Below are positions 1 through 32,340 of a DNA stretch of 64,000 bases, piece after piece; the stretch's first letter is position 1, and the number at the start of each line of letters is the position of its first letter. The translations under genes and the position numbers were made by a program. The notes beneath the pieces are model-generated. The model made no database searches and had not been told where the DNA came from. It worked only from the letters and a program-made list of their open reading frames with translations. The DNA is taken from assembly GCF_038025025.1 (NCBI RefSeq), contig NW_027117342.1, positions 744,001 to 808,000 on the forward strand. Reading direction: 5' to 3'. The DNA comes from Phyllosticta citribraziliensis (taxonomy: Eukaryota).

Positions 1-838
1 CTTACCCATCGTCATCATCGTCGTCTTCAGCAAGCGTCAGATCGATCACAACCTTGGGCTTTTTTGGCGCAGGGCCTTCTTCGTCGTGGTCTGTTGTTGG
101 ACGTGTCGGTGGAGGTGGAGCACCAGCCTCGGGCTTAATTTTTGGCGTCGTGCTTGCGCTTGTAATTGCATTGGTAGCAAGGATGGCCAGGTTTCGGCGG
201 ACTTCTGAAGACGTGGACTGCGTGCTCTGCCTGGGCAGGAGGCTGATAAGCTCGTCCGTGGAAATCTATTTCACACACAAGTAGTTAGCTTTCTACTCGT
301 CTTTACCAGGCTGCAGCAGGGATCCTGACTTCTGATCTGGACATTTTGGCGTGAGAGAGATGGTGATGTAGGGTAAAAGAGGTGAGGGGAAAAGGCGGGA
401 AAGAGAGCGATGGGTATTTCATTGAAAGGTCCGGCATGGCCTGCTGCCGGGATAGGCAGGTTAACCATTGTTATCATTTTTGTCTCCATCAACCGTGAGA
501 TTGATCACAACCTTGAGCCTTTTCGGCGCCGGGGCTTGTTCGTCGTGGTCTGTTGGCGGACGTGTCGGAAGGCGCGCATGATCGTCCTCCGACTTGATTG
601 CTATCCGTGACTGTCCGATGCTGTGTGCGGTGGGAGGGAACAGACTCTGACGCTTGGACCGGGGGACTTCTTCGTCGACATCACTCGCGTCGTCGACTCT
701 CGCACGCTTCAAGGCGAAGACCTCTTCCTCAGTCAACTCTCTGGGCTTCCGCTGCCTGGGATACGAGCCAGAATGCGGCAATACACGACTGCTCCCTGAG
801 TGCGGCTGCAGCAGCAGATGGACGCTCCTGAAGCGCAA
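1..838 (-). CDS. Partial multi-exon hypothetical protein with two copies of a basic + SIM-like module; may be degenerate; runs off the left edge
   Basis: Minus-strand reading 265..6 gives ISTDELISRLL...PTRPTTDHDEEGPAPKKPKVVIDLTLAEDDDDDDG followed by GTAAG; ORF 461..838 ends PTRPPTDHDEQAPAPKRLKVVINLTVDGDKNDNNG; intron-like GTAAAG..GCTAAC..TAG at about 306-266. Confidence 0.5.
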
Positions 839-966
839 CTGTATCAGGGAGTGAATGCTTCAAAAGCGCGGCTGGAGCAGCAGACGGATGCTCCTAAAGT
901 TCAACTGCAGCAGCAGATGAATGGTCCTGAAGCGCGACTGTGGCAGCGGAGGAACGCTCCCCAGAT
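802..966. repeat. Five degenerate 33-bp tandem units
   Basis: Units such as GCGGCTGCAGCAGCAGATGGACGCTCCTGAAGC; plus strand reads RLQQQMDAPEA/QLYQGVNASKA/RLEQQTDAPKV/QLQQQMNGPEA/RLWQRRNAPQM. Confidence 0.8.
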
Positions 967-1126
967 GCACTCGCTGCCCTGTCTCCTCATTCGTTTCCTA
1001 AAGCGGGCCGTGGATATCACAACATGGGTCGAGGGGAAAAGCTTCGAGTTTTCAAACCAGGGCTGCATCGCTCAAGGCCACTGGCAACATTTTGTGAACA
1101 GTCATTTCTCCTAAATGCTGTCTATC

Positions 1127-2979
1127 CTATCTTCCATGAACAAACAGCTGCAGTCCGCCCGATGTGGCACTCCTCCAAGGAAAGACGGGCCTTCGCGATA
1201 TCTCGGTGCAAGGCGCGACGTTGCCGGTTTCGTCAGCCGCGGTCGTCTTCCCCAAGCCAAAGTCAAGTCCAAGGCATGCATAACCAAGCTTAAAAAGCAT
1301 TTCCACTGTCCAGTCCAACGGCAAAACCTGATGGGCTTTCAGCTGCCGGCTGCTTCCCTCGACCATCCAGGTTTCTGGGTCGTCCTTGGTGAAACCAAAC
1401 GGATCGCATGCCGCCTGAAATGAGCGTGCTTTAGCAGATGACTTGTTGAGCATGGCTTGCAAAGCAAAGAAGTCCCGATTTCCTTCACAACCTTGGTCCA
1501 TGATCTCTTTGGCAGTCAGATCGATGTCGGGTTGGGCCGTATCCATCGGTTGTGCTGTTTTTCCGTTCAACAAGTGGTCAAGAGGCAGGCTTGGCTTCTG
1601 CATCTGTGGGTAAACGACGTGTTTTCCTTTTTGCGTTGACTGGAAAATAGAAAGAAGGATCTTCTCACCATGGTGAGGAGGGATCGAGGGGCGGTGAGGC
1701 AGTTTGGTGAACGACTCGTGGATTGACTTGATGAGCACCTTTTGCATCGACTGGAAAATGGAAAGAAGGATCTTCTCACGGTGGTGAGGAGGGATGGAGG
1801 GGCGGTGAGGCAACTTGGCGTAAGACTCGTGAATTGACTTGATGAGCACCCCTTGCGCACCCCCAAACCTCTTTTGCGTCGACTGGAAAATGGGAAGAAG
1901 AATCTTCTCACGGTGGTGAGAATGGATCGAGGGGCGGTGAGGCAGTCTGGCGAACGACTCGTGGATTGACTTGATGAGCACCCTTTGCGCATTCTCAACC
2001 TCTTTGGCATCCGAGTACTGCTCTTCGTCGTCGTCGGATGACTCATCCTCATCTGAAGCCGGCTCGAACGCCTGGAACGGATCCTCCCCGCCCGTCTTCT
2101 CAACAAGCTTGGCTTTGTTCACGTCTTCGTCGCTGAAGAACTGGGGTCTGATGGCCGCCACTTCCCTCAAAGGGCCTCCAGCGCTGATGCGGCCCTCTTG
2201 TCGATGGCGCAAAGCGAAGCGAAGAAGTTGGGTCAAGCGAAAGAAGTCCTCGGTGTGCAGTCCCCCGACCTTTCGAGGGTTCTCTTTCTCAGTGGCCGGT
2301 CCTGAAAGGCAGCTTGCAGGGATGACATCCTTCAACCTCCAGGAAGCAAAGAGAAAATTGATGTGGTCCACGATGGAGTCGTTTTTGAAGAAAGCTTTGA
2401 GCTCAGCATCTTTCATGTGGAGGTCTTTTTTCAAAGGGAAGTTGGCGACGGGGAAGAGTGCAGATGCAATGTTGACGTCAAGCTCGTCGTCGTCGTGCAA
2501 TTGCTTCACGCGTGTGCCGATGACTCTGGAGTTGTCTTTGTATCCTCGGAACTCTTCGACGATGAGAGCAAGGCGTTCCGTGTCTCCCAGTGATTTCAGG
2601 GAACTTGGGGGGCCAGGCATATCCGCTTGGATCAACAGTCGTGCCTCCTTGGTGTTGTCCAGATTCAAGTAACCAGCCAGAAGCGGGGCACTGGAGTAGA
2701 GATTGCTGTGCTCGATGACGGTGACCCCCTTTGGATTCTTGGAGAAAGCTGCCAGGATGGGGCTCGCCTTTGATGGGGAGCTCACACTTCCAGCCGTGGG
2801 AGTCGCGGGCTGTTTCTTCTTCGGCGTTGAGGGCGCCGCAGGGGTGGCGGGCTTCGTCTGGGGGTCGCCGCCTGCTTTGGTGATGACGCCGGCTCGGAGG
2901 TCGCAGCCTGCCTGGAGGATGCCGCCGGCTTGGAGTTCGCCGCCGGCTTCGAAGGTGCCGCCGTCTTCTTGGGTGGCAT
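1127..2979 (-). pseudogene. Truncated SNF2-family ATPase gene with long N-terminal region
   Basis: ORF 1127..2785 ends with LKAHQVLPLDW (SNF2 Q-motif-like) and CLGLDFGLGKT (cf. LADEMGLGKT); an alternative frame at about 1163-1190 gives RLSLEECH (motif II-like); MPPKK start at 2979 joins the long ORF only via a frameshift at the G5 run 2860-2864. Confidence 0.6.
1630..1982. repeat. Three in-frame tandem coding repeats (about 111 and 132 bp periods)
   Basis: VLIKSIHES(F/Y)xxLPHRPSIxxHHxEKILLxIFQSxQK occurs three times in the 552-aa ORF. Confidence 0.95.
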
Positions 2980-3865
2980 GGTGTCACTGTTTTTTGGTTG
3001 GCTCAGCTGTGTTTGGGAGAGGCTGCCGAGGGAAGGAAGTTGTAACCTGCGGTTGATTCTTGTAACGCAATTGTCTCAAGGATGATTCGTGTTCGTCGCT
3101 CTCGTTGTCGTCTTCATCTTTGTCGTCGTCTTCGGGGTCCAGGACGGGGAGAGTGGAGTGGAGGAAAGATGGTTTGGGGGCAGTAGAGGAATACCAATGT
3201 TCACGCCACGCGAGCGCCCGCTGACTCACCACGAGAAGCGCCTGCGTCCTTTTTGGGACTAGTACCTGTAAGACGATGGAAGAGTTGCAGGCGCGCGTAA
3301 GGCACTTTGGAGACGGATGAGGAGGGAGCTCTAGACTGGCAGGAAAACCAATTGTACGATGCGGTCGAAGTCGGTGCCAGCCGAGAGGTGGGCTGTGGGC
3401 GCAGAAGAAATGCCGAGATGAAGAAGTCAAAAACCGTGGGTCTATTTTGTCTATGAGGAACGCGCGCGTAGAGACGCGCCGCCTGGTAAATGGCACTGCT
3501 GTGAAATGGAACCATCCGGTCCCTCTGATGCCCGGCCCTTCCAATCATCACTGACGTCACCTGCACCGGAAGCGAGCCGAGCGGCACAACAGAACGCAAG
3601 ACTCTTTGCCATCCTCTCTATTTACCTGGCCCGGCCTCTCTCTGTCGCCCCAGTATTTTCTCAGACGCGTGGACTTCGGTTCCAGTTCCAGCCTTGTCGC
3701 AATTCTGTCTACTCGCCGGAGTCTTTCCGTCGCGCCAAAATCTTCTCCCGGATGAAACCAAGGCTTCAGATCACGGCCCCGACAACATCCTCTCCACTCG
3801 CCTCCGCCTTTCTGTCGCTCACCCCACTCCAACGCTTCAGGTCCCAGCACTCCAGCCTCAAGAAA

Positions 3866-4760
3866 ATGGGTACGAGGCAACCTGGTTTTTCCCTACGGGC
3901 GTGGTACTAACAGGGTTCCTGTAGAATCCATCGATGACCTCAAGGCCAGATTCTTCGCCGTCTACAAATCCCTCAACCATCTGTCGAAGGGGCTTCTGCA
4001 ACAAGCCTTGTCTTACATGGCGGTCCTCTACCAAAACGACGCCCTCCGGGCACCCACCACGGAGATCGACGATTTAATTCACGGCTGGGCCGCACACTCG
4101 GCCGGCGAATCAGCAAACGGCAGACCGGCTTTCCAAAATTGGTGCCACGAATCCCCGGAAGGCCACGCGCTCATGATGGACTGCAAGAAGACAGCGCAGA
4201 AGGAGAGGGAGCAAGCTGGAATTGCGGACAAGCAAATCCTCACCGCAGATACGGTCAACAGATGGCTTCTGGACTGCCCAGAGGAGTTGAGGCGCATGAT
4301 GGAGTCCCTGGATGGCCCCGATGGCTGGTACGACGAAGAAATAACCAGCGAGCATGAGGCTGTTGAAGGCGCTGCAGGCAAAGAGGCCGAAGGTAGCAAG
4401 GGCGCTGCCGAGACCAGGGAGAAACGCGAGGAATCAGAGCTTGGTCGTGACAAAACCAAGCGCGCCGAGAAGGCTTCCACGGCGTACAATCAGCAACAGC
4501 TCGAAGCGAAGGAAAAGAACGAGTTGTGTGAAATCTGCAGCGAGCTTGGTGTCACGGGATACAAGAGGGCTGATGAGCAGCGCTTGGTGGCAGAAATTTG
4601 CCAGAAGCAATCGGATTCTGGCCAGGAGGAAGAAGATAAGGAGGAAAGCGAGGAAGAAGACGAGGAAGACGACGAGGGAGGCCTGTTGGATGCGCGGATT
4701 GCGGCCATGGAGCAAGAGTTGGAGACACTCAAGAAGCAGCGTCAGGAGGCGAAGAAATGA
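3866..4760 (+). CDS. Hypothetical protein with Rho_N/HeH (SAP-like) motif, acidic tract and C-terminal coiled coil
   Basis: ATG 3866 (in-frame ATG also at 3752), intron GTACGA..TACTAAC..TAG 3870-3924 restores the frame of ORF 4008..4760; LEAKEKNELCEICSELGVTGYKRADEQRLVAEI. Confidence 0.65.
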
Positions 4761-5634: not shown

Positions 5635-6653
5635 ATGCCCTCGACACCGCCGAAAACCCCAATCAAGCCTACCAGGCAAGAAGGCCTCACCAGGTAAGTA
5701 CCCACTCTTTGAACGGCCAGATCATGAACAGTTTTTCTTACCAGCGCGGATGTCACATAGTTCTGGTGCGTCCGGCACCCGCAAGCGGAAGCGAGACAAC
5801 TCACCCGGTCCTGATCTCACCTCCAAGCAACCGAAAGTGGGCTCAAGCGCGCTGGCTTCACGACAGGTGATCCTCGCCGGCCAGTCCGGCGTCCTGGACA
5901 ACATGTTGGGATGGCTCTTTCCGTGCAATGCGGCTGAGCAGAAAGAAGCAGGTAAATTTCCCTAGCTCTTCTTCTTCTTCTCCACTGTAGTAACATGCTT
6001 CAGGCATCACCTCGGGATTCATCGAGCAACAGAAGACTCATGTGCGCGCCATGATCTTCATCGTCAAGCATGAAGTCAGCGGCGAAGATATCAACCGGAT
6101 CCTGAGAGGCCACCACCTTTACGACGCGAAGACAGTTCTCATCCACAAGGAATGGTCGAAGGCCGTCACGGAATGGCAACGTAAGGTCCTGAACTTCGTC
6201 AGTAAAGTCGTTACTGCGGAGATCCTCCCGGCTGTCAAGGGTACGGCCTCTGACCCGATGAAGATGGATGATATCGGCGCTCGCTTCCAAGTCTGGGCCG
6301 ACTTTTACAACAAGAATCCGGCCAATGTTGCAAAGAACATGTGGGCTCCCGTCAAGTGGGTCATCGACTGGGACGCCATCTACGACACCCCAAAATGCGT
6401 TAGCCAAGAGATTGCAAGCATCTTGAAGAAGTGGAGGAACTATTTCCTCCAATGCTTTGTCATGGCTGCTGATTATTCCTTCCTCTTTCGCAACGCAGCT
6501 AAGGAAGACCCCGAAGTCGTAGCGGAGTTCCTGGCAGCTCATGAGACGGAATACACCCTATTCCGCAGCACCCCCCTGGATGATGGCTTGGATGTCCCGG
6601 ATATCACCGAGATTCCGGTCTCTGAGGCAGTCTTGCCCAAGACCACAAGGTAA
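5635..6653 (+). CDS. Unassigned family F, copy 1
   Basis: Introns 5694-5760 and 5952-6003 join MPSTPPKTP / RKRKRD...VILAGQSGVLDNMLGWLFP / VRAMIFIVKHEV...; homologous to 10535-11579. Confidence 0.75.
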
Positions 6654-6995: not shown

Positions 6996-8060
6996 TCATG
7001 ACCAGCGTAGTTGCGCCATTCTAGAGCCTTCGTCATTTTCATCGCTCTCCTGCCCTTCTTCAGAAAACTCTATAGCCGCACCAGAGTCGTGAGGAACTCC
7101 GGAGGCTTCCGCAAATCCCCGGTCCAACGTGCCACTGGGAGCATTGATCCAGCTGCTGGGTCCCTCTCCAGCTTCGCCGGACGCGAAGTTATCTCCGCTG
7201 TCAGTGAGAGCGTCACTCCACGCACAAGCGCCTCCTGGGGCTTGGTCGAAAGTGGCGCCATCTCCAGCTGCGGAGTTTAAATCACCACTCATGTCCATGT
7301 TGAATACGGCATCCGCCGTGATGTCTTCAAGCCAGCGATGGGTGTACGCTCTCCCCATCTGTCTGGCAGGAGTCTGATAACAGGCTGCTTCATCTTCGAG
7401 AAATTCTTGAGGACCCAGGGAAACACAATTGCACGCGCTTACCTTTCGCATGTTTCTCAAATTCATGAAGATACTCGTGCCGTACCCTGTTCATCCTGTT
7501 GCGGTCTCTGAGGAAGCCGGGGCCGCGCATCCTTACGACGCCGACCATACTCTGAGCCGAGGCAAACGTCTCCAGCTGCGCGTTGACGATGGCGGAGCTT
7601 TCTTCCACGTGCACTACACACTGGAGCTGAAGTGCTTGTTTGAGCACACGGGCGATGGGAGCTTTGCCATCAAGCTCAGCTGGGCCTTAGTGATGGATTT
7701 CCGTCCAAGTCTTGCTCTTCATTGCCCTGTGAATAAACCTGCTCACACATGAGCCGTCTTAACTGACCCTCTTGAAATAAAAAACCTCAAACTGGTATGC
7801 AACATCGACGCTCGGGACGTACTTGAGCTTCTCTCACTTGAGAATCACATGTGCTGCAGCGATGCACGTCCAAGAAGCATTCATCTGTCATTTCATGGTT
7901 CTTGAGACCTCCCTTGCCCTCTACAGAAAGTCTCTACAAACAGCCAATGTATTTAGGAACTCCTTGGTCGTATCTGATCCTCATTGGACTGCGTCTTCTA
8001 TCGCTAAGCCAGCAGGCACTGCCTGTGGTGAGTCGGCAAACAACGCCCACTGACGGATGA
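6996..8060 (-). pseudogene. Heavily degraded SF1B helicase remnant (H1) with acidic C-terminal tail
   Basis: AQLETFASAQSMVGVVRMRGPGFLRDRNRMN (ORF 7390..7647) matches MESFDTIQS...DLVRTSGPGFLRDSRRVN of the 25.4-28.2 kb helicase; weaker PAGL..DRR and LDVHRC traces upstream; GTAAGC donor at about 7443. Confidence 0.55.
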
Positions 8061-8550: not shown

Positions 8551-8731
8551 TCGACAATACCCGCTTGACACTGTCAGAGCCCGGGAGGCCTCACATGGCT
8601 CAAGTCTTCATCGTTCCATCGAGTGAGTGAGCCCACCTGCTCTGCTTCAGCGGCTTTTTTGAGTACAACCACGTTGAGTGTTTTCTGACAAGTGACTTGG
8701 CAGGAACTCGTTGGATCTTCCCCTCGACAAT

Positions 8732-8978
8732 GTACGCCAACAGCCCGTACTTCGACAAATTGGACACTACCGCTGCCAGTCCATTGCAATAAGCCGAGCT
8801 CGGCTGCCATTTCCACCTTTTTCGTTCCCTTGCAGCTTTTTCGCTCAATCCTTGGGTCTTGCGCTTGACGATCCGTTTCGACAGTGTACGCCATCAGACT
8901 CGTACCTGCGACAATTTGGACACTACCATTGCCAGTCCACTGCGAAGATCGGAGTCCGGCGACAATTTTCACTTTTTT
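8732..8978. repeat. Two diverged direct repeats, period about 154 bp
   Basis: GTACGCCAxCAG..CGTAC..CGACAAxTTGGACACTACC..TGCCAGTCCA at about 8732 and 8886. Confidence 0.8.
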
Positions 8979-9164
8979 GGTTTCCCTCTCTCTGCTCCGC
9001 ATCTTCTGCCTACCCAGGACAGGTAAGTTGTCACAATGCTTTTTCGCATGTCTTCCACAATTTGTTAATTGACTGTCTGCAGATTTTCCTCCACTGTCCG
9101 CTTCTTTTGGTCGCGTCTGCCGATTCCCAGCCAGCTTGACTGCGAAATCTGCACGCAATTCGCA

Positions 9165-9560: not shown

Positions 9561-9780
9561 ACTCTACCCTCTTCCTCTTTGACATTTTCCGCGGCAGGCG
9601 TTGTGTTCAAGTTACTCTTCCCGCTTGCGCACCGGTTTTCGCCGGGTCTTCGTCAATCAATGAAACAAGGATTTCGGTGTACATGCATCAGCTTGCTTGA
9701 CAGTGCCTCTCCAGTGATTCCATCTTGTCGTGATCATTCTACGCTGTTTCTGACTTCAACTTTGCAGTATGAACTTCTAG

Positions 9781-10256
9781 GTACCATACATGGCCGCCCC
9801 CATCACAAATTCCACGACCAGCACACTCCAGAGAAGCTCGTACACCTTCGTAATATGATCTACGTCATCTACCACCACATCGACGGTGATGACATCGACA
9901 AGTTGATTGGAATCCACCGCCGCGCGACGTTTAAGACACTCTGGCTCAGTCAAAAGACGTACGGCGGAGTCAGGACTCTCCAATGCCAGATCCTGAAGTG
10001 GGTCAAGTTGCGTGTCGCGGAAATCTACCAGGCCAGTAAGAAGGCCGGCGCCAAAATGGAGGCGCTCACCAGTGCGCAACGCATTGAGCGCTACTGGACC
10101 CCATTCCTGCGCAACAATCCCGTTAGCATCATATACCGGTGTAGCCATGATCTCAAATGTGCGCGGGCGCCAGTGGTGACATTACTTTCAACAAAAGCGC
10201 GAACGACAGAATGGTTTCATACCCGCAGGAATGATGAGAAGACGAATGCTCCTTGA
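9781..10256 (+). pseudogene. Unassigned family F, copy 2 (truncated)
   Basis: EKLVHLRNMIYVIYHHIDGDDIDKLI...LQCQILKWV...RYWTPFLRNNP aligns with copies 1 and 3; similarity lost after about 10140; AG acceptor at 9780 in the matching phase. Confidence 0.6.
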
Positions 10257-10534: not shown

Positions 10535-11579
10535 ATGGGTTCCACGCCTCCCAGCACTCCCAAATCGAGACCATTCAGGTAAACAGGCTCTCCCGAGATC
10601 ATCAGGCAGTCTCTGATCTGAGTGCACATCACCTAGTCATGGAGCGCCCAGCTCAAACAAGCGCAAGAGAGAGGATCTGGAGCTTGAGGTGAAGAGTCCA
10701 GAAACAGACGCGGGCGGTCTTGCCGAAGACCGCGAGATTAAACTCGCGGGCCAGTCCGGTGTACTGGACGATGTGCTGGGCTACTTGGTCCCGGGAAACA
10801 CAGACAAGCCCAACGAGAAGGGTAATGACTCCATGAATGCATTTCCCACCTTCAGTTTACTAAATTCCTTAGGCTCCACTACTACCACGAGGGAAAAAGT
10901 CCAGATTGTGCGCGCCATGCTCTTTTTTGTTACACACGAGGTCGACCCCGCCGACATGATCAAGCTTCTTCGGGACCGCGACATGTGGAGCAAGGACATG
11001 GAGCTCGAGGCTGTTTCTTGGGCAGGCACCGTCTCAAACTGGCAGAACCGCACCCTCAATTTCGTATCGGACTCGATTCAGGCAGTGGTCAAGCAAAGGG
11101 AGACAGAGCTGCCCAAGATGACGGGGAAGGACCGGTCCCAGGTCTGGGCAACCGAGTATCGCAAAAACCCCATCCGCTATGCACAGAAGATGTGGGGCGC
11201 CGTCGGGGCCGTCGTCAAGTGGGACGTCATCTTCGACCCGCCCGCCACCTGCAGCAAGGAAATGAAGGACCTCATGCAGACCTGGAGGACGTACTTGATT
11301 CGCTGCTACGTTTACGCCGCGGAAAACTCCTACGTCTTTCGTCACCTCTACAAGATCGACCCAGAGGCCCTGCTTGAACACAAGATGGCGGGTGAAGATG
11401 AGTACAGCCTCTGGAGGGGTGCTCGCTTGACCGAGGCAATCAACCCGCCGAGCATCAAAGACATTCCAATTCCCTCCGAGTTCGCCCCCGCCAGAAAGAA
11501 GCGCCGGGCTGTCAAGCCCGCAAAAATTGCCAAACCCGGCAAAGACCTCAACGAGGCCATAGAAGGAATCATTGGCTAG
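10535..11579 (+). CDS. Unassigned family F, copy 3 (apparently intact)
   Basis: MGSTPPSTPK exon, introns 10579-10636 and 10822-10872; KRKRE, IKLAGQSGVLDDVLGYLVP, VRAMLFFVTHEV, C-terminal RKKRR. Confidence 0.8.
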
Positions 11580-14122: not shown

Positions 14123-14359
14123 ATGGCCAGCTCTCAATCCGATCTCAACCTCGACAGGATCCTGGAGCTGATGAAAACCTGCACCTCCCACGAAGAGTTT
14201 ACCAGGCTGCAGACTCTTGCCATCATGCACGTAGAGGCCAAGTTTCATCGCTTTCCTCAGGCTGCCAACGGCGCTGGAGCTGCGGGAGCCTCTACCTCGC
14301 AGCAGCCCGTGAAGCAGGAGCGCTCTGCCAGTCCCCAGGTCAACGAGGAGAACGCGTGA
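14123..14359 (+). CDS. Small hypothetical protein, family S copy 1 (may continue after a GTGAG donor at 14356)
   Basis: 5'-UTR intron GTAAGC..TACTGAC..CAG 14062-14116 directly before CATCATG; helical N-terminus, Ala-rich linker, VKQE. Confidence 0.55.
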   Translation: MASSQSDLNLDRILELMKTCTSHEEFTRLQTLAIMHVEAKFHRFPQAANGAGAAGASTSQQPVKQERSASPQVNEENA

Positions 14360-16233
14360 GCCCATTCCCTTCCGTCGCGAGAAACTCCGTCGCTGATTGC
14401 GCTCCCAAGCTTCCGCTTCAAGCACGAGTCACCCAGCCCTTCACCCGAGCCGAGTTCATTCAATGGAGTCACCGAGTCGCGTCGCGACGAGCCCATGAAC
14501 CTTCCGGCTCCCACCAGGTAACGCAGCTCTATTCACATGCAAAGACTCATGCTTACGCAGAGCCCAAACAGACGTCCTGCCCCCGACTCAAGCAACGTCG
14601 ACGGACGCGTCTTACGCCGTTCTGCCCGTCTCCAGGACAAGACTGTGAAGTCGAAGGACTAGTCAGATACATGCGCGCGGCTGGATCTTCATCAAGGTAG
14701 TATGAATGGCTCGATGGCTATGGATGGTTTTGCCGGATGGACTTTTGCACTGGACGGGTAGCCAACCAGGTCTCGGATTGCTTCACCGGGCCTCTGCCAA
14801 CCAATGAGACAAGGGTTTCGCGATCTGCCCAGCTTGCTTTGTGGTGAATTCATTTTGAGCCGTGATGATTTGGTCTTGCTTCGCAAAGTTCGGGCTTCCA
14901 GCAATGCCATTCGCCTCAATCGCGCAATGTGCGTTCCGCCATTGCAGCTATTGCTGATCATTCTCAACCTTGAATTCAGCTGCTTGCTCTGAGCAGCGGC
15001 GACATGTCTGTCAGTAAAGAGAAGAGCAATGAGGGGGTTTCTTGGGCTCAAATATCCTGGGTAAGCTCTACCCCATGCCACTTGTTGCATCCGCTGATCA
15101 AAGAAGGCTACTTGCCAGGAAAAGAAGTACCCTTGCCCACCAATCAACAAAAGACACACCAGAGTCAGACGCGATAACGCGTCAGAGCCGCTGCCGCGAA
15201 GCCCCCGTACCTGGACGAAGGCATTTTCGTCTTCTCCATCACGCATAACGCCAAAGCGCACACGCCAAAACGCACACGCCACAAGCGTGTCGAAGACCAG
15301 CTCAGATATGGAGGCTTCTCTCCAGCCTGAAGTCCGTCGTACTGCCAAGCAGCAGCGTCGAGAAGCTTCGACGAATCTGCGAAGATTCCCTCCCAAGCGT
15401 CGATGCGGGCAAACAGCAGCTGTGTCGAAGAAGCAATCGTGGCCACGAATGCTCCCCGCGTGTCCACAACCATATCCTCGGGGGTCATGTCGCGACGAAT
15501 CATCTCGTTCAAAGCACCTCTGCTCTGCCACGGAGCGGGAGCTTGAATCCATCACCCGCATCCGCGGAGGCCGCTGCGCGAGCACCATTCGAGACGCCAC
15601 CACGCGATGCCTGACCAACCCGCACTGCCAGCCCACATTTCTCAAGCAAGTAAGATTCTTTGTCCATTTATCTTCGCGCTGGCTGCATGATCGCCTTAGG
15701 GCTGAAGTACAAGCTGCAGATCTGGAGGTCTCTCGTCGATGCGCGAATACCCCCTGCGCCAACCCTTTGTGTGTTGACGGAGTCGAATTCCCAAAACCTC
15801 GCACGCGTCAACTGCCTCAACAACAATGACTACAGCTGCCCCGAGGGTATGAAGTGCTTGCTCAACATCGCACACGGACAATTGTAAATTTCATGACCGG
15901 CGTGCTGCCGTATCTACGAGCCGACGGCGAAATCCCTCGTGTAGGTTGCGCACGAGCGTATCATGTTCCCGTCGTGCCAATCAGTAAGGATACCAGCTAA
16001 GCATGCCTTGTCTGTCTGGCGTCCGGCCACCCTATGCTCAAACGGCACCGGCCGAAGCATTCCGGCTGAGGGAATGCCAAAGTTTCGACGTCCTTTTGGG
16101 TGGTCGCAGGCTCCAAGAGCATCCATCTTCTCGTTGTCCAGGTCTTCTCTGAATATGTTGTCCCATTTGAGGGAGACTTGTGCAATTCTACAGGTTGTTG
16201 GTTCAAGTAATATATGGTGGGGGAAGGGCTGCT

Positions 16234-16576
16234 TACGGTGCTGGCATGTCCGTATCGTCATCAGACTCGTCATCGGAAATCAGGCTGATGATTTCAACCG
16301 GGCGCTTGGCACGACTGTCGTTGTCGGTACTTCCATGGTTGTCGTTTCCAGAACTCAGATCAGGATCCTCGACCTTTGGTTTCTGCAACCTCTCATTGAC
16401 ATCTTTTGCGGGTCTGAGTGGCCTCTTCTGTTCGCGTCGTCGATTTGAAGGATGAGGCGGGCGTGGCGGGCACCTGCTTCCCTGGAGCTTGCTGCTGCGA
16501 CCCGCTGGTGGAGCTCGTCAAGGATTTTGTGCTGGTCCGGTAATTCAACCATCCTGTCCACGAGATTAGTGTTCAT
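16234..16576 (-). pseudogene. Frameshifted small gene with C-terminal SIM-like motif
   Basis: Intron-like GTGAGC..TTGAC..AAG just before ATG 16576; a second frame reads QKPKVEDP...KRPVEIISLISDDESDDDTDMPAP*. Confidence 0.45.
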
Positions 16577-17212: not shown

Positions 17213-18086
17213 CTAAGCTGCGACGCCGCCGACGTGCGAAACCGCGAAGTCCGAGATGACCTTTTTGGTGACAGGAATGAGATGGGGATACTCCCCCGGG
17301 TCCTGGGTGTCGTGGAACACGACTTCCAGCCATAGCTCGCGTCTGTACTGCGCGATATAGAATGACTGTGCCCTGATTTCTGGCCTCATCATGTGCCGAT
17401 AAGTTTTCATGAAATACTGATCAGCTTGGCTGAGCCAACAATAGAGCAAGCGCCATTGCCAGTCCTTCAGGATTTGCTTCGTGCGGTCGTCGGCGGTCGT
17501 AGGAGGACTGAAAACGACATCAAAGTCGATGGTCGGCGTGAGGAAGTAGAACATCTTCTTGACAAGATGCGCTGGGCGCCTCAGAAAATACGCTGTCAAG
17601 ACTCCAAAGCGCGCCTCCATACCCACGGTCAGAAGGTTGTCTTCCGTAGAAAGCGAACGATTGACGATGCCACGAACTTTGTCCGAGATGAATTCGAGCA
17701 CACAAGTCGTCCAATGGTTTCCTGTCCTGACATGTTCACGATGGGCCTTGTCGGATCCTCCCAGGTCTACCTCATGCCAGGCAAGATAGTACAACGCGCG
17801 GATGTGGTTGGTCTTCGTTTCCCTGGCCCTCTTCTCGGCGGCAGCTAATCCATGTTAGTCCAGTCGGCCACAGGGCTGTAAGGCACTCACAAGCACGATG
17901 TGTCGGGGATCCAAGGGTGTCTTCCCAAGCATCGTTCGGAACTGCTTGACCCGAAAGCACCACCTGGCGCTCGTTTCCATCATTTCCAACCTTTCTGTGA
18001 AGTCCAAATTCACGATAGACCCTTTCGCGTCCGATGCGGAAGCGTTGACGCGGAGTGCGCTCCGGCTCTTCGTCATGGTTCGGCAT
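17213..18086 (-). CDS. Unassigned family F, copy 4 (diverged, internal deletion, possibly pseudogene)
   Basis: RQVVLSGQ exon; intron GTGAGT..ACTAAC..TAG 17890-17845; HIRALYYLAWHEVD...IDFDVVFSPPTT...ILKDW...CWLSQA aligns with VKWDVIFDPPAT...LMQTW...CYVYAA of copy 3. Confidence 0.65.
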
Positions 18087-19728
18087 GTCTTCGTCGGATG
18101 TTGTTCTGAGTCGGAGCCGGGGTAGGTGGAGGCAACACTGAGTTGGTGAACTGGAGCAGCCGGCGAGTCTTTGCTGGAGGTGGATAACCACGTCTCAGCA
18201 GAGAGCTCGAGTGGATGAACGGTTGGCGCAAAGGGCGACAGAGCTTCACCAGGGAGTTGTGAATGAGGAGTATGCCGAAGGCGCAAGATATTCGGAGGTG
18301 TGGTGGGTGAGACTGGAGCCGATTGGAACACGCGAAGCGTGATCTGGAGTAGCGGGTGAGATCTGTCGAGAGCCGAAGATACAGACGTCAAGCTCGTAGG
18401 CCTGCACGAGGTGGGAGGACCGGCGCGATCGAATCAGAGAGTTTGAGGGTGGATGATGAAGCAGAGCAAAGAATTGGGAGATTTATTGGGGAATGGAACT
18501 CGACAGAGTGCAAGAAGAAAGTTGTGGCGGCTTGAGAATTGTGTGTCGGAATTCGGGCGGTGAAATTTGGCATTGTCTGCGGTGTAGGGTGACTGTGTGA
18601 GAGCGGCGTACCGTAGACGGGCCCGGCAGGAGGTTAGGTAAGGTCAGGTACCATGTAGGTTGCAGCTTGAGCCTGTCCGCTGCACAGCAGATCCCAATCG
18701 GATCATCTGCCTGGAGTGGCCACTGGCTTGCACCAAGGAGCATTCATGTGCCGATTCAATCCTCATCTCCCGTGTTCTTCTGTGGTAGCGGCTGCGTCCC
18801 GGGAGCAGTCATCTGTTGTCGCGCCCACCTTTGTCCCTATGGACCTATTCCTTCGATGAAAAGCTCATTGCGTGCCTGAAGTTGCTCGCTCGCAACCTAA
18901 GGCACCAAGGCAGGCTACCCTCACCTCTTCCTTTTCGCTCAACAACCTGCTGCGCGTACGGGTACAGCCCGCAAACTACGCCCTGATTAACGGAGACGTA
19001 CAATCGAACCGGATCCGCAGTGGACCGAGCTGCCTCAGGGGACGCATTGCGGTCTTTGACGACCCAGGATTCCTTTTTGAAATGTACCTCTACGCGAAGT
19101 CACTCCTTGAGCCTTTCATCGGCTCGATAAACCAATTCAACATCCACAATGGCCACAACGTGCTCGCACAACAACCTTTACCCCGACTCAAACCATCACG
19201 ATCAGCTACCGCAACCGCTACGCCCTCTACCTTGCTGCTCAGCCTAACATTGGCGCCGCAGCCCCTTGGGGAGGGATTGGAGAGCAATTCCGAGCCAAGG
19301 AACCACCTGTCGACCAACGACGAGGTGCTACCGGCCAAAAGTAGTGTCTCTACCGCTGACGGAGTCAATTCTCTTGGCCGCGCTTTTGTTTGTCTTTCTT
19401 CTTTGCTTTCTATTAGATACTTCCTTTCCATTCACGAGGGGACGTCGTGTAGCACCTGGGTTGCTCTCAACCATGGTATGAGGTCGGCGACGTGTATCAG
19501 CAGGCTATGACTTCTAGAGCAAAGATGAGTGCATACGAACGAACGCTTCCACCGCCTCTGGCGCTTGTTCAAAAATTAATGCCGCGTCCCCTCTTGTCAA
19601 TTGCCTTGCGTGTGATCTCTCTCTCTGAATCGATAAGACTTCATTTATTCGACCCTGCCTACTTTCAATCGAAAATCCATTTCCCCGCCCTTTTACTGGT
19701 GTCTAATCTAAGATGTTTTTCTGAACCC

Positions 19729-19797
19729 TTTCATACATTCGTTCTTCGCCCCCTGGACGGCATGTTCTTCCATCTGCTTGGGCCATGAACGCTCCCT
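19729..19797 (+). repeat. Left arm of 69-bp inverted repeat pair A
   Basis: Reverse complement of 22294-22362, 5 mismatches counted by eye. Confidence 0.9.
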
Positions 19798-19799
19798 GC

Positions 19800-21572
19800 C
19801 ACACGCAAAGACAATGAGGGTTCAATAGCGGTCTGCGCCTGGTACTTCGCCGAAATGCGGGCAGCACCGGCGACCTTCCGAACGGCGTCGACTGGGGATG
19901 CCGTGTTGATATCTGCGGCAGGAATGGCCTGGGGCAGCTCCATCGAGTTCCAAGCCTTGGATTCCTTGTCCCAGGGGCGGTTGATGAGCAATGGAATCGT
20001 TCCGGGTGGAGCGATTGGGAGGCGAGTGGTCACGATCGCGTGCCAGGCACCATCCATCGGGGCCTCAGTCCAGTCCTTGTCTGAGCCAGGCTCATTGGTC
20101 ATGAACAGGACCTTGACAACGTCGTCTTCTTGCAAACGGAAAGTCCAAGTTTCTTCCTTCGTTTCCTGGCCGTCGTTGTCTTCGGCGTTGTCCTTGCGGG
20201 TGAGATCGTGCTCAAGGATGCCAAAGTACTGGCGGCCTTCCGAGTTGTTGACCTCGACAAGACGAATGTTGCTTTCGAGGATCTGGGTGCGTGTGCTCGA
20301 ATTCTTGCTCTTGCAGGACCAGGACGGGGCCTCTTGTCTTGTCGAAAGTGGCCACGGTCCCACGAAGCATCTCTGGGAAGCTTTCGGCGACGAAGGTGAT
20401 TGCGTACGTCACCACAGAGCTCTGTTAGTGGGACGGCAGCAGGTTTGCAATGTCCGTCGCTGGAATTCCCTGGCGGAGTAGCTTCACGGTCGCATCAATG
20501 ATGACACGGGCGTGATCGACGTTGTAGGTAGATCCAGATGCCTTGACCAATGCATCCTTGGAATACTTGACATCGAAAAGGTACACTCGGCGGTTGTACG
20601 GCACCTGGTACTCTGCTCTGATGGCGGCTTCGAAGGGCATGGAGAAGGGATGGAGCATTGCCTCGGTCGCTTCGTCAATCTGCAGAAGGCCGCTGTAAGT
20701 CATGTTCGAGACAACATGCAAGACTGAGGAGACGCATCGGTGCTGTTGAACAAGCATCCTGAACGGGATGCCAAGCAGGAGCATGCGGAGGAAGAACGAA
20801 TGCCTGTACAGCTCTGACAACGAGTGCCTTGTGCTGACGATTGGGTTCAGCTGTGCTGGGTCGCCAATGAAAGGCTTGGTGCCGAGAGGGTACCAAGCAA
20901 ACAGGCCCCAGACGTCGGACTCCAGGGCGCGGGCTGCCTCGTCTACCATCATGACGGTCGGACTGATGACCGTTCTGACCTTGGGGTGAGCCGCACCCAT
21001 CACTGTGGTGACGATGATGTCGGCCATCTTGAGAGCTGCCTCGCGCAACTCCGCCTGAAGCTCAGTGGAGCGTGTCCTCGAATTCTTGCTCTTGCAGGAC
21101 TGGATATCCGTACATGGCCATGTACTCCTCGCAATTGGATAGGGTGGCTTGCTTGACGACAGTGATCTCGATTCTGTCTTCAGCTGTGGTTTGCGACCCA
21201 AATCCGATGAAGCACTGGTGCTTCGCACGTTCCTTGAACCACGAAGACGATCGTAGGGCTCTAACAGGTCTGGGGCGTCCGAGCGGTAGGCAAGAAAGTG
21301 AAGAAGGCGGTCGGATGCCAAGGGGTTTTCTGTGGTGGCCTGGTGAGATCCATGGGAGGCGAGCGACGTGTGAAGGTCGGCGGACCAAGTAAAGTCGGTA
21401 TGCGACACGGTGACGACACAATGTAGAGAGTGAGGGTCATCTTGGGCCTGGTCTTGATATCTCCGTCCGTGTCGGTACCGTCGGCGGGCGCAACAACGTG
21501 TCGACGCCGGAGGTAACCAACCTCACAGGTTTTGTGCGGCTTGGCATTGGAGAGGTGGTTGGGTGAGACCAT
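19800..21572 (-). pseudogene. Rearranged SF1B (Upf1/DNA2-NAM7-like) helicase pseudogene (H2)
   Basis: N-terminus TCEVGYLRRRHVVAPADG matches DCEVDSLSCRLAVFPANG of H3; ADIIVTT, VDEAAR, IGDPAQL, QQHR present; no Walker A; frameshifts. Confidence 0.85.
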
Positions 21573-24093: not shown

Positions 24094-24441
24094 CTACATG
24101 GACTCGACCGACGGCTCCCTCTTGAGACCGAGCGACTTCTTCAGACCGAGCGACTTCTTGGTTCCGAGAGACCTCTTGACTCCGAGCGACCTCTTGACTC
24201 CGAGCGAGCGCTTGATTCCGAGCTCCATCTTGACTTCGAGCTCCTCCTCAACATCGGGCTCCTTCTCGATAACGGGCTCTCCAGCAGCAGCATCGGCGGC
24301 AGCGGCCTTGCTCTTCAGGACATCGAGATAAGTCATGCAGATTTCTGACCACTCGTAAGCGTCTTGGTAGGAATCGGCATTGCCAATGTAGTCCAGAAAT
24401 TTCTTGAGCATGGCATCGCTGCTGGGGCCTGGGAAGGTCAT
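24094..24441 (-). CDS. Small hypothetical protein, family S copy 2, with LGxK(R/K)S repeats
   Basis: 5'-UTR intron GTAAGC..TACTGAC..AAG 24516-24446 directly before CATCATG; 115-aa ORF. Confidence 0.6.
   Translation of the reverse strand: MTFPGPSSDAMLKKFLDYIGNADSYQDAYEWSEICMTYLDVLKSKAAAADAAAGEPVIEKEPDVEEELEVKMELGIKRSLGVKRSLGVKRSLGTKKSLGLKKSLGLKREPSVESM
24119..24244. repeat. 18-bp coding tandem repeat, about six to seven units
   Basis: CTCTTGACTCCGAGCGAC-type units; LGIKRS LGVKRS LGVKRS LGTKKS LGLKKS LGLKRE. Confidence 0.95.
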
Positions 24442-25447: not shown

Positions 25448-28225
25448 ATGGCGTCAAGACTTTTGCACCACTTCAACGCATCATCTCCCGATTGCGAAGT
25501 CGACTCTTTGTCCTGCAGGCTGGCCGTGTTTCCTGCCAACGGTGGTGATCCCTGGGCCATCGGCGATGGTCATCTCCGCGAGCTCCAGAATACTTCGCTG
25601 CAGATTGCTTCGGACACTGGACCGATGGTCTACTCTTCGCTTCAGATCCGCCATCATCGCCACTTCAACTGCTTTGTTGATGTTAAAATCGTCTTCCGCG
25701 ATTATGGAGACGACGGAAAGCCGATCAACACTTCTGTCATCGTCATCCGGCTTGACCGAGACTCCATCGTTGCGGAGAACGGACAGCCTGCCAGACTCGG
25801 TTTCCGCGAGGTCAGCGACAACAACCTGGCCGATTCTGCCGTAGCTTTTGGCCTCACCACCCAGGCCCTCATGTCTCAGAAAGAAGCGGTCGCCAAAAGC
25901 GGCGAGAGGTTGTTCTTCATCTCGATCCCGTACGCCGCGTCTCCGCCCTCCGCCAACCTCAACACGCGTGCGCCATGCCATGGTTCCCAACGCGCGTCAA
26001 TCGAACACCTCCGACGCACTTTTGCCTCCAACGGTGTCATCCACGCCCTGGTCCGTCGTCCGAACGCTCCCATCCCGCTGATGGCCAAAATCAACGCCAG
26101 AATTACGCACTACCGAAATCAGAATCCGCTGGATCCTTACTACGCGATGGTTCCTAGGAAAGAGCGGCACATCCAACTTGGCGTTCAGACTCCCAAAGAT
26201 CAGCGTCCAAAAGTCCACCTGGCGCCCCAAGTCATCTTCTGTGACTGGGATGCGTACATGACCGTATTGGGCTACGGCGTCGTCCAGGAGCGGGAGTGGG
26301 AGGTTGAGCACGCGGCTGAGAGAGGAACCTCCATGAACGCCGCAAACCATGCAGTGCTCAGGTTGGACGCTCTGCGGGAGCTCAGCACGGGAAATGCCAA
26401 CGACTGGGCACGCAAGACATTGCTTGGGACCCGCATCATAGACATGCCTCTCTCCGACATGTACAACGACGTGGAGCGTGACGAGCTGGGGAATCAAGCG
26501 ATGTGGCTGTCGATGTCCCACCTCAATCCAGGACAAGCCGCTGCCATGGCCATGACGCAGGCATTGCCCAACGGAATCGGACTGATCCAAGGGCAGGCCG
26601 GCACAGGCAAGAGTTTTCTCCTCGCGAACATGGTGCTTCCTTTGCTGTTCACGGATGCTCGTGTTGGAAAGTACGGCAGACGCGATGGTCCGGCGGCGCT
26701 GCTGCTGTCGACAGCTAACGAGAGTGTTGACGAAATCGCCAGGCGTGTTGAGTCCATCTGCGAAGACACATGCGAGCAGCTGTCAGTTCAAGGCCCAATG
26801 TATGTTGTCAGAGTGCATTCGGCAGCCTCGGAGTCTGCCCTTCTTCGCCGGGCTGTGGATCAAAGTCACGATTTGCAGGGCCAACAACACACACCCGGCC
26901 CGACCGAGTTGGACCTCTCGGATTTTGCAAGATCCCGTGCGACCATGCTCACAAGTGCGACGGACGCAGCACCCTCTGGGATTGCTGACAGGCGTGTCAA
27001 GCTCGTCAACCTCAGTCTCGGCACCCTCATGATGCTCTTGTCTGGCTTTGAGACAACGTGTCTTGCGGAAAGGGGCCAACAGCGTTTTGCGCGCTTCCGG
27101 GAATTCTACCAGTTGTATGAAGACGGCAAATTGGTCGATGAAGAAGCGAAGAAGACGTTTTTCAACCTTCAGGAAGAGCTGCGACAAGCAGCGCTGAGGC
27201 ATGCGGACGTTGTGGTGACCACTCTCTCTACGGCTGCTAGTCGGAAGATTCGTGGCGTCGTTCAGCCAATGACAATCATAGTCGACGATGCAGCGCGAAC
27301 CATGGAGCCAGACATTTGGAGTTTATTCACGTGGTACCCGCGAGGTGTCAAGCTCTTTCTCGGCGACACCCAGCAGCTGCGCCCCTTCGTGATGTCTGAA
27401 GGTGGATTCTCAGATCAGCTCCGTCTGTCTTTCTTCGCGCGCTTCCTTTTGCTGGGATATCCTTGTGTTGAATTGGTAGAGCATCATAGGAGCGTCGGCA
27501 CCATCAAGAGTATCTGCAGCAAGTTGTCCAACGCTGGCCACCTTGAGACGTCGAAACAGACCGAGTTCGAGCTCCGGAGCCTGTCAAAAGCTTTTGAGGC
27601 AGCAGTCAGGGCTGGGTACAATACCAAATACAATCGGAGCGCACTGCTCTTCGACATCAAATATTCCGAAGACGCCTGTATTCCCCGCTCCAAATCGTAC
27701 ATCAACATCCACCACGTCCGGGTCGCACTGGATGCAGTCGAAAAGCTGCTGCGTCAGGGCATCAATGCTGAGCGGATAGCAGTTCTGGTCCCCTACCTCT
27801 CCCAGTTGGCAGTCTACAGGTTTGCACGCAACACCCTGGCCCAAAGCAATCCGTCTTTCGCCAGCCTCCATATGGAATCGTTTGACACGATCCAGAGCCG
27901 AGAGTACGACTTCACGATCGTCGACCTCGTGAGGACCAGCGGCCCTGGCTTCCTGCGGGATTCGCGCCGCGTCAACGTGGCTCTTTCGCGTGCGCGATAC
28001 GGCATGATCATCTTGGCCAACCGCAGCGAGATTAAACGCAACCGGATCGAATTTCGCGACACTCCACCCGCCAAGATTCGAGAGATCTTCGCCAGCATGA
28101 AAATGTCGGTCATTGAGTTTCAGGCGCATGCGGAGGAAGGCTTGGTCGAGATTCCTGGATTGCGCGACATCACTGCCGAGAGTGCGGCTGGTCTGGATGC
28201 CGCTGAGGAGCCTGTCGCCGAATGA
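25448..28225 (+). CDS. SF1B Upf1/DNA2-NAM7-like helicase (AAA_11/AAA_12 type), longest copy (H3), with variant motifs
   Basis: Uninterrupted 925-aa ORF from ATG 25448: LNPGQ, LIQGQAGTGKS, ADVVVTT, IVDDAAR, GDTQQLRP, HHRS, VPYLSQL, FDTIQSRE, RRVNVALSRAR. Confidence 0.9.
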   Translation: MASRLLHHFNASSPDCEVDSLSCRLAVFPANGGDPWAIGDGHLRELQNTSLQIASDTGPMVYSSLQIRHHRHFNCFVDVKIVFRDYGDDGKPINTSVIVIRLDRDSIVAENGQPARLGFREVSDNNLADSAVAFGLTTQALMSQKEAVAKSGERLFFISIPYAASPPSANLNTRAPCHGSQRASIEHLRRTFASNGVIHALVRRPNAPIPLMAKINARITHYRNQNPLDPYYAMVPRKERHIQLGVQTPKDQRPKVHLAPQVIFCDWDAYMTVLGYGVVQEREWEVEHAAERGTSMNAANHAVLRLDALRELSTGNANDWARKTLLGTRIIDMPLSDMYNDVERDELGNQAMWLSMSHLNPGQAAAMAMTQALPNGIGLIQGQAGTGKSFLLANMVLPLLFTDARVGKYGRRDGPAALLLSTANESVDEIARRVESICEDTCEQLSVQGPMYVVRVHSAASESALLRRAVDQSHDLQGQQHTPGPTELDLSDFARSRATMLTSATDAAPSGIADRRVKLVNLSLGTLMMLLSGFETTCLAERGQQRFARFREFYQLYEDGKLVDEEAKKTFFNLQEELRQAALRHADVVVTTLSTAASRKIRGVVQPMTIIVDDAARTMEPDIWSLFTWYPRGVKLFLGDTQQLRPFVMSEGGFSDQLRLSFFARFLLLGYPCVELVEHHRSVGTIKSICSKLSNAGHLETSKQTEFELRSLSKAFEAAVRAGYNTKYNRSALLFDIKYSEDACIPRSKSYINIHHVRVALDAVEKLLRQGINAERIAVLVPYLSQLAVYRFARNTLAQSNPSFASLHMESFDTIQSREYDFTIVDLVRTSGPGFLRDSRRVNVALSRARYGMIILANRSEIKRNRIEFRDTPPAKIREIFASMKMSVIEFQAHAEEGLVEIPGLRDITAESAAGLDAAEEPVAE

Positions 28226-28399
28226 AATGCCCCTCAGTCTCGCGGTCAAGATTCGCGCCAGGACTGTGGCTCATCAGTTGGGATAGAAGTTAGTTAGGTA
28301 TTGCAGGGACGGGGGATGCATCTCGGGGTTCAAAGAATTTGTAATCTCGAGTCTTTTCTCCCAGGTCTACACATGCGCGCGGAACAGATGGAGGTCGCC

Positions 28400-29767: not shown

Positions 29768-31348
29768 ATGACCTCTCCATTTTTCGGCACCTTCTCCATC
29801 ATTGATGCTGATACATTCCTTCTCCAGCCATGGCGTACCTTGAAGCGGCCCGTCACGGAATCGAAAACACGTCTCTGTCACTTTTGCATAGAGCAGCCTT
29901 TGAGAACATGCTTGTCAGCGACGTCCGCAATCGAAGCCGGTACCTGCCGACGCCCGGAGAGCACCTGATACAAGAAGCAGCGAGGATGATGGTTTGCCCC
30001 GACGTTGCCGAAGATGTCCGCAGAGATTGGGCTATCATCCTCCGATTCGAATCGGAACGAGAGGCACCAACCCCGCAGAATGACCACGGCCAAGATGCTC
30101 CCCAAGAACGTCGTCAGGCTCGCCAGCGTGAGTCTCAGCCACCGTCTCGTGGCAGACGTTGGCATCTTCAAAGGCCCTCCTGGTACGGGAAAGACATTCT
30201 GGATCGGTACCATTGTCCAGCCGCTCCTCTTTGCGACGAAGAAGAAGGAACCAGGTCCCGTCGCGCTGATCTTGCCCACCAAAAACGACTCGGTGGATGA
30301 CATTGGTGCTCGCTGTGTCGAGTCATCAGAGCAGTTTGCCGAGGAGCTGGAAGTCGATCGCACAATCACCGTCGCGAGTCTTCATTCGCGCAAGTCCTAA
30401 AAGCCAACCGTTCGACAGCCCGGCATGGCCAGGCGCGCCCCTCGTCGTCCTCCGTTTCTGCGCAGCCCAATGGCCGAGGCGCTGCACGACTTTGCAGCCG
30501 CAAAGGAATGTGGCGCCGCGTACGCTGGCACCGTTCCCTCGCCACATGCAGACAAGCGTGTGGAGGACGTCGAGCACAGCCATGGCCAGCTCATGTGGGA
30601 CATCTCGGGCTTCGTCGAAACGTCACGGTCGGAAAAGTTCAGCAAGGAAAGGTTTCTCAACTTCAGACACTTGTACCCCATATTTGAGCAGGACTTTGTC
30701 TTCACGCCAAAAGAGTCGACTGATTTTACCGCAGCGCAGCTGGATCTTGCAAAGGCCGCGCTTCTCGAGGCAGACGTGATCGTGGCCACCGTGGCTAGAG
30801 CCAGCGACCCTACTCTCTACGAGGTCGTTAAGCCCCACCTCATCCTGACCGACGAAGCCGCGCGGGCCACGGACTCTGAGATATGGCCAGTCTTTGTCAA
30901 CTACCCAAAGGACCCCAAGCTGATGGTGGGCGACTCGAAGCAGCTGCGCCCAGTTTCCCACTTTGACAACCGACACCGGGATAAGCGCCACCTGGCCCTG
31001 ATGACAAGACTCATGATCCTCGGAGACCCCTGTCTGAGTTTCATCAACCAGCATCGCTGTGTGAAGGAAATCGCCAAATGTCTTCTTGGAGTTGTCGTAC
31101 GAGAAGCGCATCAAGAGCCCCGGCCACGAAAGCTCCCAAGACGCCTCGCCTTCGCCTGACCATGCCAAAGGCCAAGGGCACGACTGCTCCCACCGCGACC
31201 CCACGCATGTGGCCCGGTCTCTGCGGCCCCTTGCGAAGCCGTTTGTGGACGTGGTCAGAGAGTCCTACAACTGCCCGGTCAACAGGTTCGCGTAGCAGCT
31301 GGACCCCCAGAAGGCCGAGGAAGAGATATTGGAGTTGGCTGAGTCAGT
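29768..31348 (+). pseudogene. SF1B helicase pseudogene (H4)
   Basis: [12 protein letters not shown] in ORF 30005..30400, stop at 30398; ADVIVAT, TDEAAR, VGDSKQLRP, NQHRC in ORF 30425..31159; frameshifts; motifs V-VI absent; start approximate. Confidence 0.85.
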
Positions 31349-31386
31349 TTCCAATGTGACCAACGTCCGCGTCGTCATGAACATCA

Positions 31387-32203
31387 TTGTCAAGCTTGTC
31401 GCTGCCGGAATCGATCCCACAACTTGGCCTGATCCAAGGCCCTCCAGGCACTGGCAAGACTACCCTGATGGCAAACATGGTGCTGCCTTGCGTCTTCAAT
31501 GATACTCGCTTGGAGGACAAGAGTGAAGGACCACCTGCGCTGCTGTTGTCCACCTCGAACAGCTCAGTCGACGACATAGCCGTGCGGGTCAAGGCAGTCT
31601 GCGAAGATGCCTCGAAAAGCTTGTCCTTCAACCGGTACGTGTACACCGTCAGGTTGCACTCGCCAGGAAGCGAGTCGGCCATTGTGAGGAAGTCCGCAGA
31701 CCGGAAGCGCGGCGACAAGCGCCCAGATTTCCTCAACAGTCCGGTCGACCAGGACCTGAAGGACTTTGCCACGGCCAGGGCCCTTGCATCAGTGTACACG
31801 AAGTCGAAAGACAGACCCGCCGGCGTCCCCGACAAGCGTGTCCGTGTCGTCGACCTAAGCCTTGGACGGATCATGCTCCTCATGTTTGGTTTTGAGGACA
31901 CGCCTCTCGCCCGCAAAGACCAGGAGCAGTTCGAGAAGTTCCGCGACAAAGAACCTTGCGACCCAACAAGGGATGGCGCGCTTCACCGCGCTCCAGACGG
32001 AAGGAGATCGCCAATGTCTTCTCGGACTTGTCGTACGTGAAGCGTATCAAGACCCTGATGCATGTGGCCCAGTTTCTGAAGCCCCTTGTAAAGCCATTTA
32101 TAGATATGGTCAGAAAGTCTGATAACTACCTAGTTAATAGAATAGCGTTATAGCTAGACCTGCAGAAGGCTGAGGAAGAAATATTAGAGTTGACTGGGTC
32201 AGT
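31387..32203 (+). pseudogene. SF1B helicase fragment (H5), tandem to H4
   Basis: [60 protein letters not shown]; jumps past motifs II-III to a tail homologous to 31066-31348. Confidence 0.85.
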
Positions 32204-32340
32204 ACATGCCTAAGTTGCTGGGCTCGAATGCTCGAATGCTTCCTACCATCGTCTGGTGAAGCGTATGAATGCTCCTCGACTGGCCCTGCCATTTATCATA
32301 GTGCCGCAATCCATGACCAAGCCATGGACCAGCACGGTTC
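32204..32340 (+). repeat. Right arm of about 130-bp inverted repeat pair B
   Basis: ACATGCCTAAG..CTGGGCTCGAATGCT..TCCTACC..AAGCGTATGAATGCTCC..GTGCCGCAAT..ATGACCAAGCCATGGACCAGCA. Confidence 0.9.

Follow-up and report, generated by a model that had tools for sequence, protein, structure and literature searches.

An old, locally duplicating cluster of nuclear gene families in Phyllosticta, including a family with a predicted homeo-Prospero-like fold

The 64,000-nucleotide window analysed here (positions 744,001 to 808,000 of contig NW_027117342.1 of Phyllosticta citribraziliensis, written C5:744001-808000; the genome comprises 31.4 Mb in 22 contigs) opens with a 32.3-kb island of helicase, chromatin-type and unassigned genes. 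The island belongs to a larger cluster, of which it is the right end. This cluster, spanning approximately C5:670,400-776,340, was delimited after 200 kb of left flank had been added; 74 kb of it, on the left, lie outside the window and were overlooked by an earlier, sequence-only reading. The cluster measures 106 kb, or 0.34% of the genome, and we hold with high confidence that it is an old, vertically inherited Phyllosticta cluster, in which five nuclear gene families duplicate locally, diverge and die gene by gene. It is likely an old cluster of the conflict type, and the reading preferred here, that it acts as a genome-conflict or surveillance module, is assigned a probability of about 0.47. 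The result most worth following is the Prospero-like predicted fold of one of its families, designated F.

The main families are concentrated at this one locus. Genome searches score the best candidates only, so that family counts are lower bounds; they place in the cluster all five SNF2-like matches, six of the seven endonuclease matches (one to an intact gene and five to decayed copies), eight of the 16 helicase matches (the rest are distant superfamily 1B, SF1B, genes including Upf1) and, with two different queries, 7/9 and 8/11 of the F matches. The five helicase loci, the four F paralogues and the SNF2 remnant described in the sequence-only reading are all present, together with an endonuclease remnant that it had overlooked. 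In window coordinates, these genes are:

1127..2980, - strand, SNF2-like remnant with the family's N-terminal domain, the ATPase start and internal tandem repeats (E 9.6e-6 to the SNF2 gene at C5:705 kb)
5635..6653, + strand, F1, intact model with two GT-AG introns (P. citrichinensis orthologue, 66%)
7393..7686, - strand, small and weak SF1B helicase remnant (E 1e-4 to H3; E 0.02 in a second search)
9777..10139, + strand, F2, only the first half of the domain
10535..11579, + strand, F3, intact model of 311 aa with two GT-AG introns
15914..16517, - strand, His-Me finger endonuclease remnant (15914-16279), front domain (51% to the intact C5:734 kb copy), preceded by a motif resembling a SUMO-interacting motif (SIM)
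17213..18086, - strand, F4, open gene model, one intron (closest relative from P. citrichinensis)
19734..21522, - strand, broken SF1B helicase, sister of H3
25448..28225, + strand, H3, open SF1B helicase of 925 aa with AAA_11 and AAA_12
29990..31156, + strand, H4, broken SF1B helicase
31381..32040, + strand, H5, truncated SF1B helicase

The left part of the cluster holds four further F genes and the following:

C5:675.6 kb, 703.9-707.8 kb and 709.9-711.7 kb, SNF2-like genes
C5:716053-719196, H1, intact helicase
C5:734385-735512, intact His-Me finger endonuclease
C5:736971-740486, H2, intact helicase

Evidence for age and inheritance comes from the sister species. In a tree of 34 F rows (10 own copies and 24 of 108 matches), six of the eight F copies in the island are closest to a sister-species protein, with bootstrap values of 99-100 for five of these placements and 91 for the sixth. 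The relatives in P. citrichinensis (KAK8161946/49/54 and KAK8161039/40/43) and in P. citriasiana (KAK7510940/46/47) carry neighbouring accessions on one contig, and adjacency of accessions was taken as a proxy for synteny. A relative present in run X2 is collinear over window 23108-28552, being 96% identical across H3 (25421-28552) and 91% across F3 (10512-11512), with about 91% identity in non-coding DNA near H3. The clustered orthologues and the collinear pieces point to presence of the cluster in these relatives. The P. capitalensis orthologue of H1 is nested within the helicase clade, and the helicase duplications are therefore older than that split. In this species the longest contig of the H1 orthologue and the contig of two F genes both measure 2,881,607 bp, but the linkage is weak because F genes there are spread over at least four contigs. 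Gene content differs between species: P. citrichinensis has an extra F copy beside the F4 orthologue, and its flank matches window 18225-18404, where P. citribraziliensis has none. The earlier label "accessory" is wrong in the sense of strain-specific.

The F family comprises at least 108 fungal clusters and occurs in Dothideomycetes; its four window paralogues align with each other. The F3 domain was modelled at a predicted local distance difference test (pLDDT) score of 96, and its best structural match is the homeo-Prospero domain (PROS class homeodomain, Pfam HPD PF05044, PDB 1mij). The predicted model has the arrangement that defines the PROS class, a divergent homeodomain whose third helix continues into a helical bundle, and no viral fold match for F was obtained. 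Identity to the homeo-Prospero domain is only 8-11%, however, and about 60 F residues do not align with it. None of 108 and none of 83 F members reached the PF05044 cut-off (in the second scan, among the best 25 of 42 weak families), and for this reason F is not filed as Prospero; a genome-wide PF05044 search gave no matches, but neither did its control. F is a fast-evolving multigene family of Dothideomycete fungi, whereas bioRxiv 10.1101/041806 and PMC7535936 describe the homeo-Prospero domain as confined to bilaterians. On balance we lean slightly towards F being a true fungal homologue of this domain. Basic columns on helix 3 of the model are no more than consistent with sequence-specific DNA binding.

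Prospero/Prox1 is cited as a bilaterian invention, with no relative of its DNA-binding unit being known elsewhere, and the prediction of the same fold for at least 108 fungal clusters makes the origin of that unit testable. If the homology is true, a blank Dothideomycete family would be named as DNA-binding proteins, and the unit would be either far older than animals or moved between kingdoms.

Outside the cluster, F genes occur at C5:2036 kb and C12:587 kb. At the latter (C12:586712-590203), a long F copy, accompanied by two short fragments of the F N-terminus on the opposite strand, sits between a Rua1-domain gene and EF-1alpha, and a solo long terminal repeat (LTR) lies about 1.2 kb upstream of the F gene. 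This LTR belongs to the same copia family (82%) as a full element within the cluster (C5:724163-729351; frame of 1516 aa, 99.3% identity between its LTRs, target duplication of 5 bp), which is a young insertion inside an F gene. Just upstream of F2, window 9163-9552 contains 3.7 tandem copies of a 104-bp unit.

The helicases share the AAA_11 and AAA_12 core with Upf1-like SF1B helicases, and their best solved-structure match is UPF1 (E 1e-41). Walker A, Walker B and motifs III, V and VI are intact in H1, H2 and the P. capitalensis orthologue, and H1 is intact across the genus. By contrast with Upf1/Nam7, Sen1, SMUBP-2/Hcs1, ZNFX1, Dna2 and the MOV10 type, to none of which they are orthologous in the tree, the cluster helicases form a separate clade (99/92), carry a domain of about 300 aa and no assigned family in place of the Upf1 zinc domain, and include many broken copies. 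Two of 120 listed matches, both from outside the genus, group with this clade (92/82). Orthology to Upf1 was considered and rejected: the tree separates these genes from the genome's own Upf1 on C13, in which the UPF1 zinc-binding and 1B domains are strong, and neither domain is in the Pfam list of H3 or among the best five of ten families for H1 and H2. The Walker B glutamate has a role in ATPase activity. H3 might have lost part or all of its ATPase activity while its frame stayed open, because this residue is replaced by Asp and about 135 residues (a 1B-like region) present in H1 and H2 are missing; Gly is also replaced by Ser in its motif V.

Inverted repeats lie around broken helicase copies. 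An 80-bp inverted repeat (19718-19797 / 22294-22373, 90%) flanks the broken helicase at 19734-21522, and 130-bp inverted arms (29104-29231 / 32204-32340, 80%) enclose H4 and H5. In run X1 a single 2136-nt contig covers the former remnant (window 19768-21581). A GT-AG joint at window 22354/22411 in the same run marks a spliced + strand transcript in 22354-23128, on the strand opposite to the remnant; these may be antisense or pseudogene RNA. A separate, long-branched SF1B helicase (C5:603796-607770, - strand), 65 kb left of the cluster, groups weakly with HELZ2 and outside the island clade, and a 279-codon frame of no Pfam family (C5:741246-742082, + strand) adjoins H2.

The endonuclease scores 40.7 and 36.5 bits against PF05551 (His-Me finger zinc-binding loop; cut-off 27) and aligns to the active-site segment of I-PpoI, as His-Cys box enzymes do. 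Unlike these, the cluster genes are free-standing among protein genes and not in rDNA or a group I intron (no RNA-family scan was made), and they possess a front domain seen only at this locus and a SIM-like leader, such segments lying just upstream of two copies. Two more free-standing PF05551 genes (C6:129373-130815 and C11:269173-269514) stand amid ordinary neighbours. Among the SNF2-like genes, the largest has Gln at the position of the Walker B Glu, and the window remnant is frameshifted near its start.

The remaining island genes are smaller or weaker in their assignment:

2..265, - strand, short frame whose end carries a SIM-like motif and an acidic tail (DNA 82% alike to 461-568)
461..859, - strand, another SIM-like frame, a tandem duplicate of 2..265
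3866..4760, + strand, single-copy gene of 279 aa with an acidic tail
14123..14662, + strand, S1, 143 aa, spliced, with a helical N-terminus
18860..19163, + strand, family G, of no known family (second copy at C5:743.6-744.0 kb)
19164..19305, + strand, 142-bp piece 86% identical to C6:2030555-2030696
24094..24441, - strand, S2, 115 aa with an 18-bp tandem repeat, weakly related to S1 (shuffle p 0.03)

S1 splicing is supported by three GT-AG joints in X1, two of which are also found in X4. The protein contains two psi-K-x-E sites and, near its end, the HMGN-like string RRSARL, six of the eight letters of the nucleosome-binding motif RRSARLSA given for HMGN and Dsup in PMC12487698. The full motif is absent from S1, its sequence is otherwise unrelated and nucleosome binding is putative. 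A frame with RRSKRL follows the S paralogue at C5:713 kb; short motifs of this type arise by chance at a low rate (two in 524 kb). The earlier claim of S paralogues within the window holds only at the marginal p value of S1 and S2, but a convincing paralogue lies outside it, at C5:713.9 kb (0 of 5000 shuffles). The SIM frames reported earlier are present, with four of the six pattern matches in 524 kb falling in the island, a modest excess. As for the Rho_N/HeH-like frame, the gene at 3866-4760 is real, whereas its Pfam match is below the cut-off (18.3 vs 24.9 bits).

Put together, these products might form a chromatin-level genome-conflict or surveillance module. F proteins, through their homeo-Prospero-like fold, would bind DNA and supply changing specificity, while the small S proteins would dock on nucleosomes via the HMGN-like motif and be SUMOylated. 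The His-Me endonuclease, led by its SIM-like segment, could then be recruited to these sites and cut DNA, with the SNF2-like ATPase and the Upf1-type helicases opening chromatin and unwinding nucleic acid. The target would be selfish DNA or rival alleles, and fast turnover would be explained because such a target moves. That F targeting, endonuclease, SNF2-like ATPase and helicases form such a joint system is a tentative proposal, somewhat short of even odds. The stronger composite claim, in which F is homologous to the homeo-Prospero domain and also serves in Phyllosticta, alongside these enzymes, as the variable targeting subunit of a hitherto undescribed system linked to SUMO and nucleosomes, is unlikely. 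A genome-conflict locus, one of the options listed in the sequence-only reading, nonetheless stays the best functional reading. The cluster is a candidate eukaryotic conflict locus in which genes for targeting, nuclease and motor functions come together in the manner of bacterial defence islands, and its genus includes pathogens of citrus as well as endophytes. Should nothing beyond the architecture hold, the locus is a birth-and-death cluster of an ordinary kind and of modest interest.

Of the interpretations in the sequence-only reading, a long birth-and-death of nuclear nucleic-acid and chromatin genes is supported. The idea of a repeated or mobile unit, raised there as repeated arrival of one multi-gene kit, as an undescribed large element or as cargo of a Starship, is not supported. 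In its favour, mobile DNA often carries helicase, SNF2 and HNH-type nuclease genes, relatives of the helicase clade beyond the genus are few, and the right border is sharp, with housekeeping genes, the conserved block noted earlier, beginning past window 32.3 kb (Cdc27/POLD3, TBCD, an ammonium transporter, Lon, Rrn6, a DEAH helicase, CUE and RRM proteins). Pfam scans of 26, 123, 150 and 150 frames (at least 85 aa across C5:666-776 kb and at least 165 aa from 650 kb, excluding nine frames that straddled stretch borders and those lying antisense within known genes) nevertheless found, the copia polyprotein excepted, no DDE, tyrosine-recombinase (DUF3435) or HUH domain; a genome-wide DUF3435 (PF11917) search gave no matches, but neither did its control. 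The cluster ends have no long repeat in common (best 18 nt, E 0.25; few-base repeats are beyond this comparison). GC is host-like at 0.52-0.59, no signal of repeat-induced point mutation was seen in the cluster, and the genes have spliceosomal introns. Starships, defined in PMC11162782 by captain, cargo and direct repeats, resemble the cluster in their size of about 100 kb, accessory-looking genes and filamentous ascomycete host; the cluster differs in that the frames scanned hold no captain, its two ends share no long repeat, and sister species carry old paralogues at a position that looks orthologous. No recurring gene order was seen and no DNA match spans two kit genes, the longest between paralogous genes being 213 bp at 66%. 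No second kit copy was found: when island frames were compared with 60-70 kb around each of the four outside F and PF05551 genes (C5:2036 kb, C12:587 kb, C6:130 kb, C11:269 kb), none had a second kit family beside it, and the helicase, SNF2 and endonuclease families are single-locus. Families that are confined to one locus, shared with related species and not co-occurring elsewhere, the pattern which that reading had itself set against a mobile unit, are largely what was found. A relic of Starship cargo, of an undescribed large element or of an endogenous DNA virus that lost its mobility genes is accordingly very improbable.

A gene nursery without common function is the more serious alternative, possible if doubtful: unrelated fast-evolving nuclear genes would pile up by local duplication and inversion in a rearrangement-prone, permissive stretch and mostly decay, F being ordinary lineage-specific transcription factors. 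It agrees with the absence of a recurring gene order among 32 hand-ordered kit genes (commonest pair three times, p 1.0; commonest triple twice, p 0.88), the inverted repeats flanking two broken helicases, the unrelated insertions (the young copia, a captured 142-bp piece, a giant repeat gene) and F standing alone at two loci. However, nearly every family is predicted to act on nucleic acid or chromatin in the nucleus, a bias that a neutral nursery does not need; three of them are confined to the locus, H1 is kept intact, and H3 exceeds nearby non-coding DNA in its identity to the X2 relative. A homing-type selfish locus, in which the endonuclease cuts rival alleles and gene-conversion repair copies nuclease and neighbours, stacking old copies, would account for one intact and five decayed nuclease matches at one place, and repeated repair of breaks would suit both the captured piece and the inversions. 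The WHO clusters of Torulaspora and Lachancea (PMC7282813) likewise consist of single-locus, diverged endonuclease genes mixed with pseudogenes, with low identity among tandem paralogues, common to related species. Yet the nuclease class is another, several further families are present and most copies are not the nuclease; island frames of at least 60 aa matched no flanking gene, such as the duplicated host-gene fragment of WHO clusters (outside matches were another SF1B gene and low-complexity or repeat pieces only), and there is no age gradient or unit order. Homing is hence improbable, and the conflict or surveillance module remains the preferred reading.

Several further observations concern the sequence around these genes. 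The piece at 19164-19305 looks like a captured fragment. Its donor has the look of non-coding or leader sequence and belongs to a contig of very high depth in the RNA-like runs (5105 in X1). Within the left part, C5:677559-698225 (- strand) is a single frame of 6889 codons, made up to 22% of Thr, 12% of Ser and 10% of Pro; it has a hydrophobic segment at its N-terminus and numerous diverged repeats, and looks like a giant secreted wall protein or adhesin. Short tandem arrays lie at window 790-960, 1629-2011 and 8724-8985, and an array at the right end of the window (62381-63653) has a 70-bp piece (74%) in common with 28812-28884 in the cluster.
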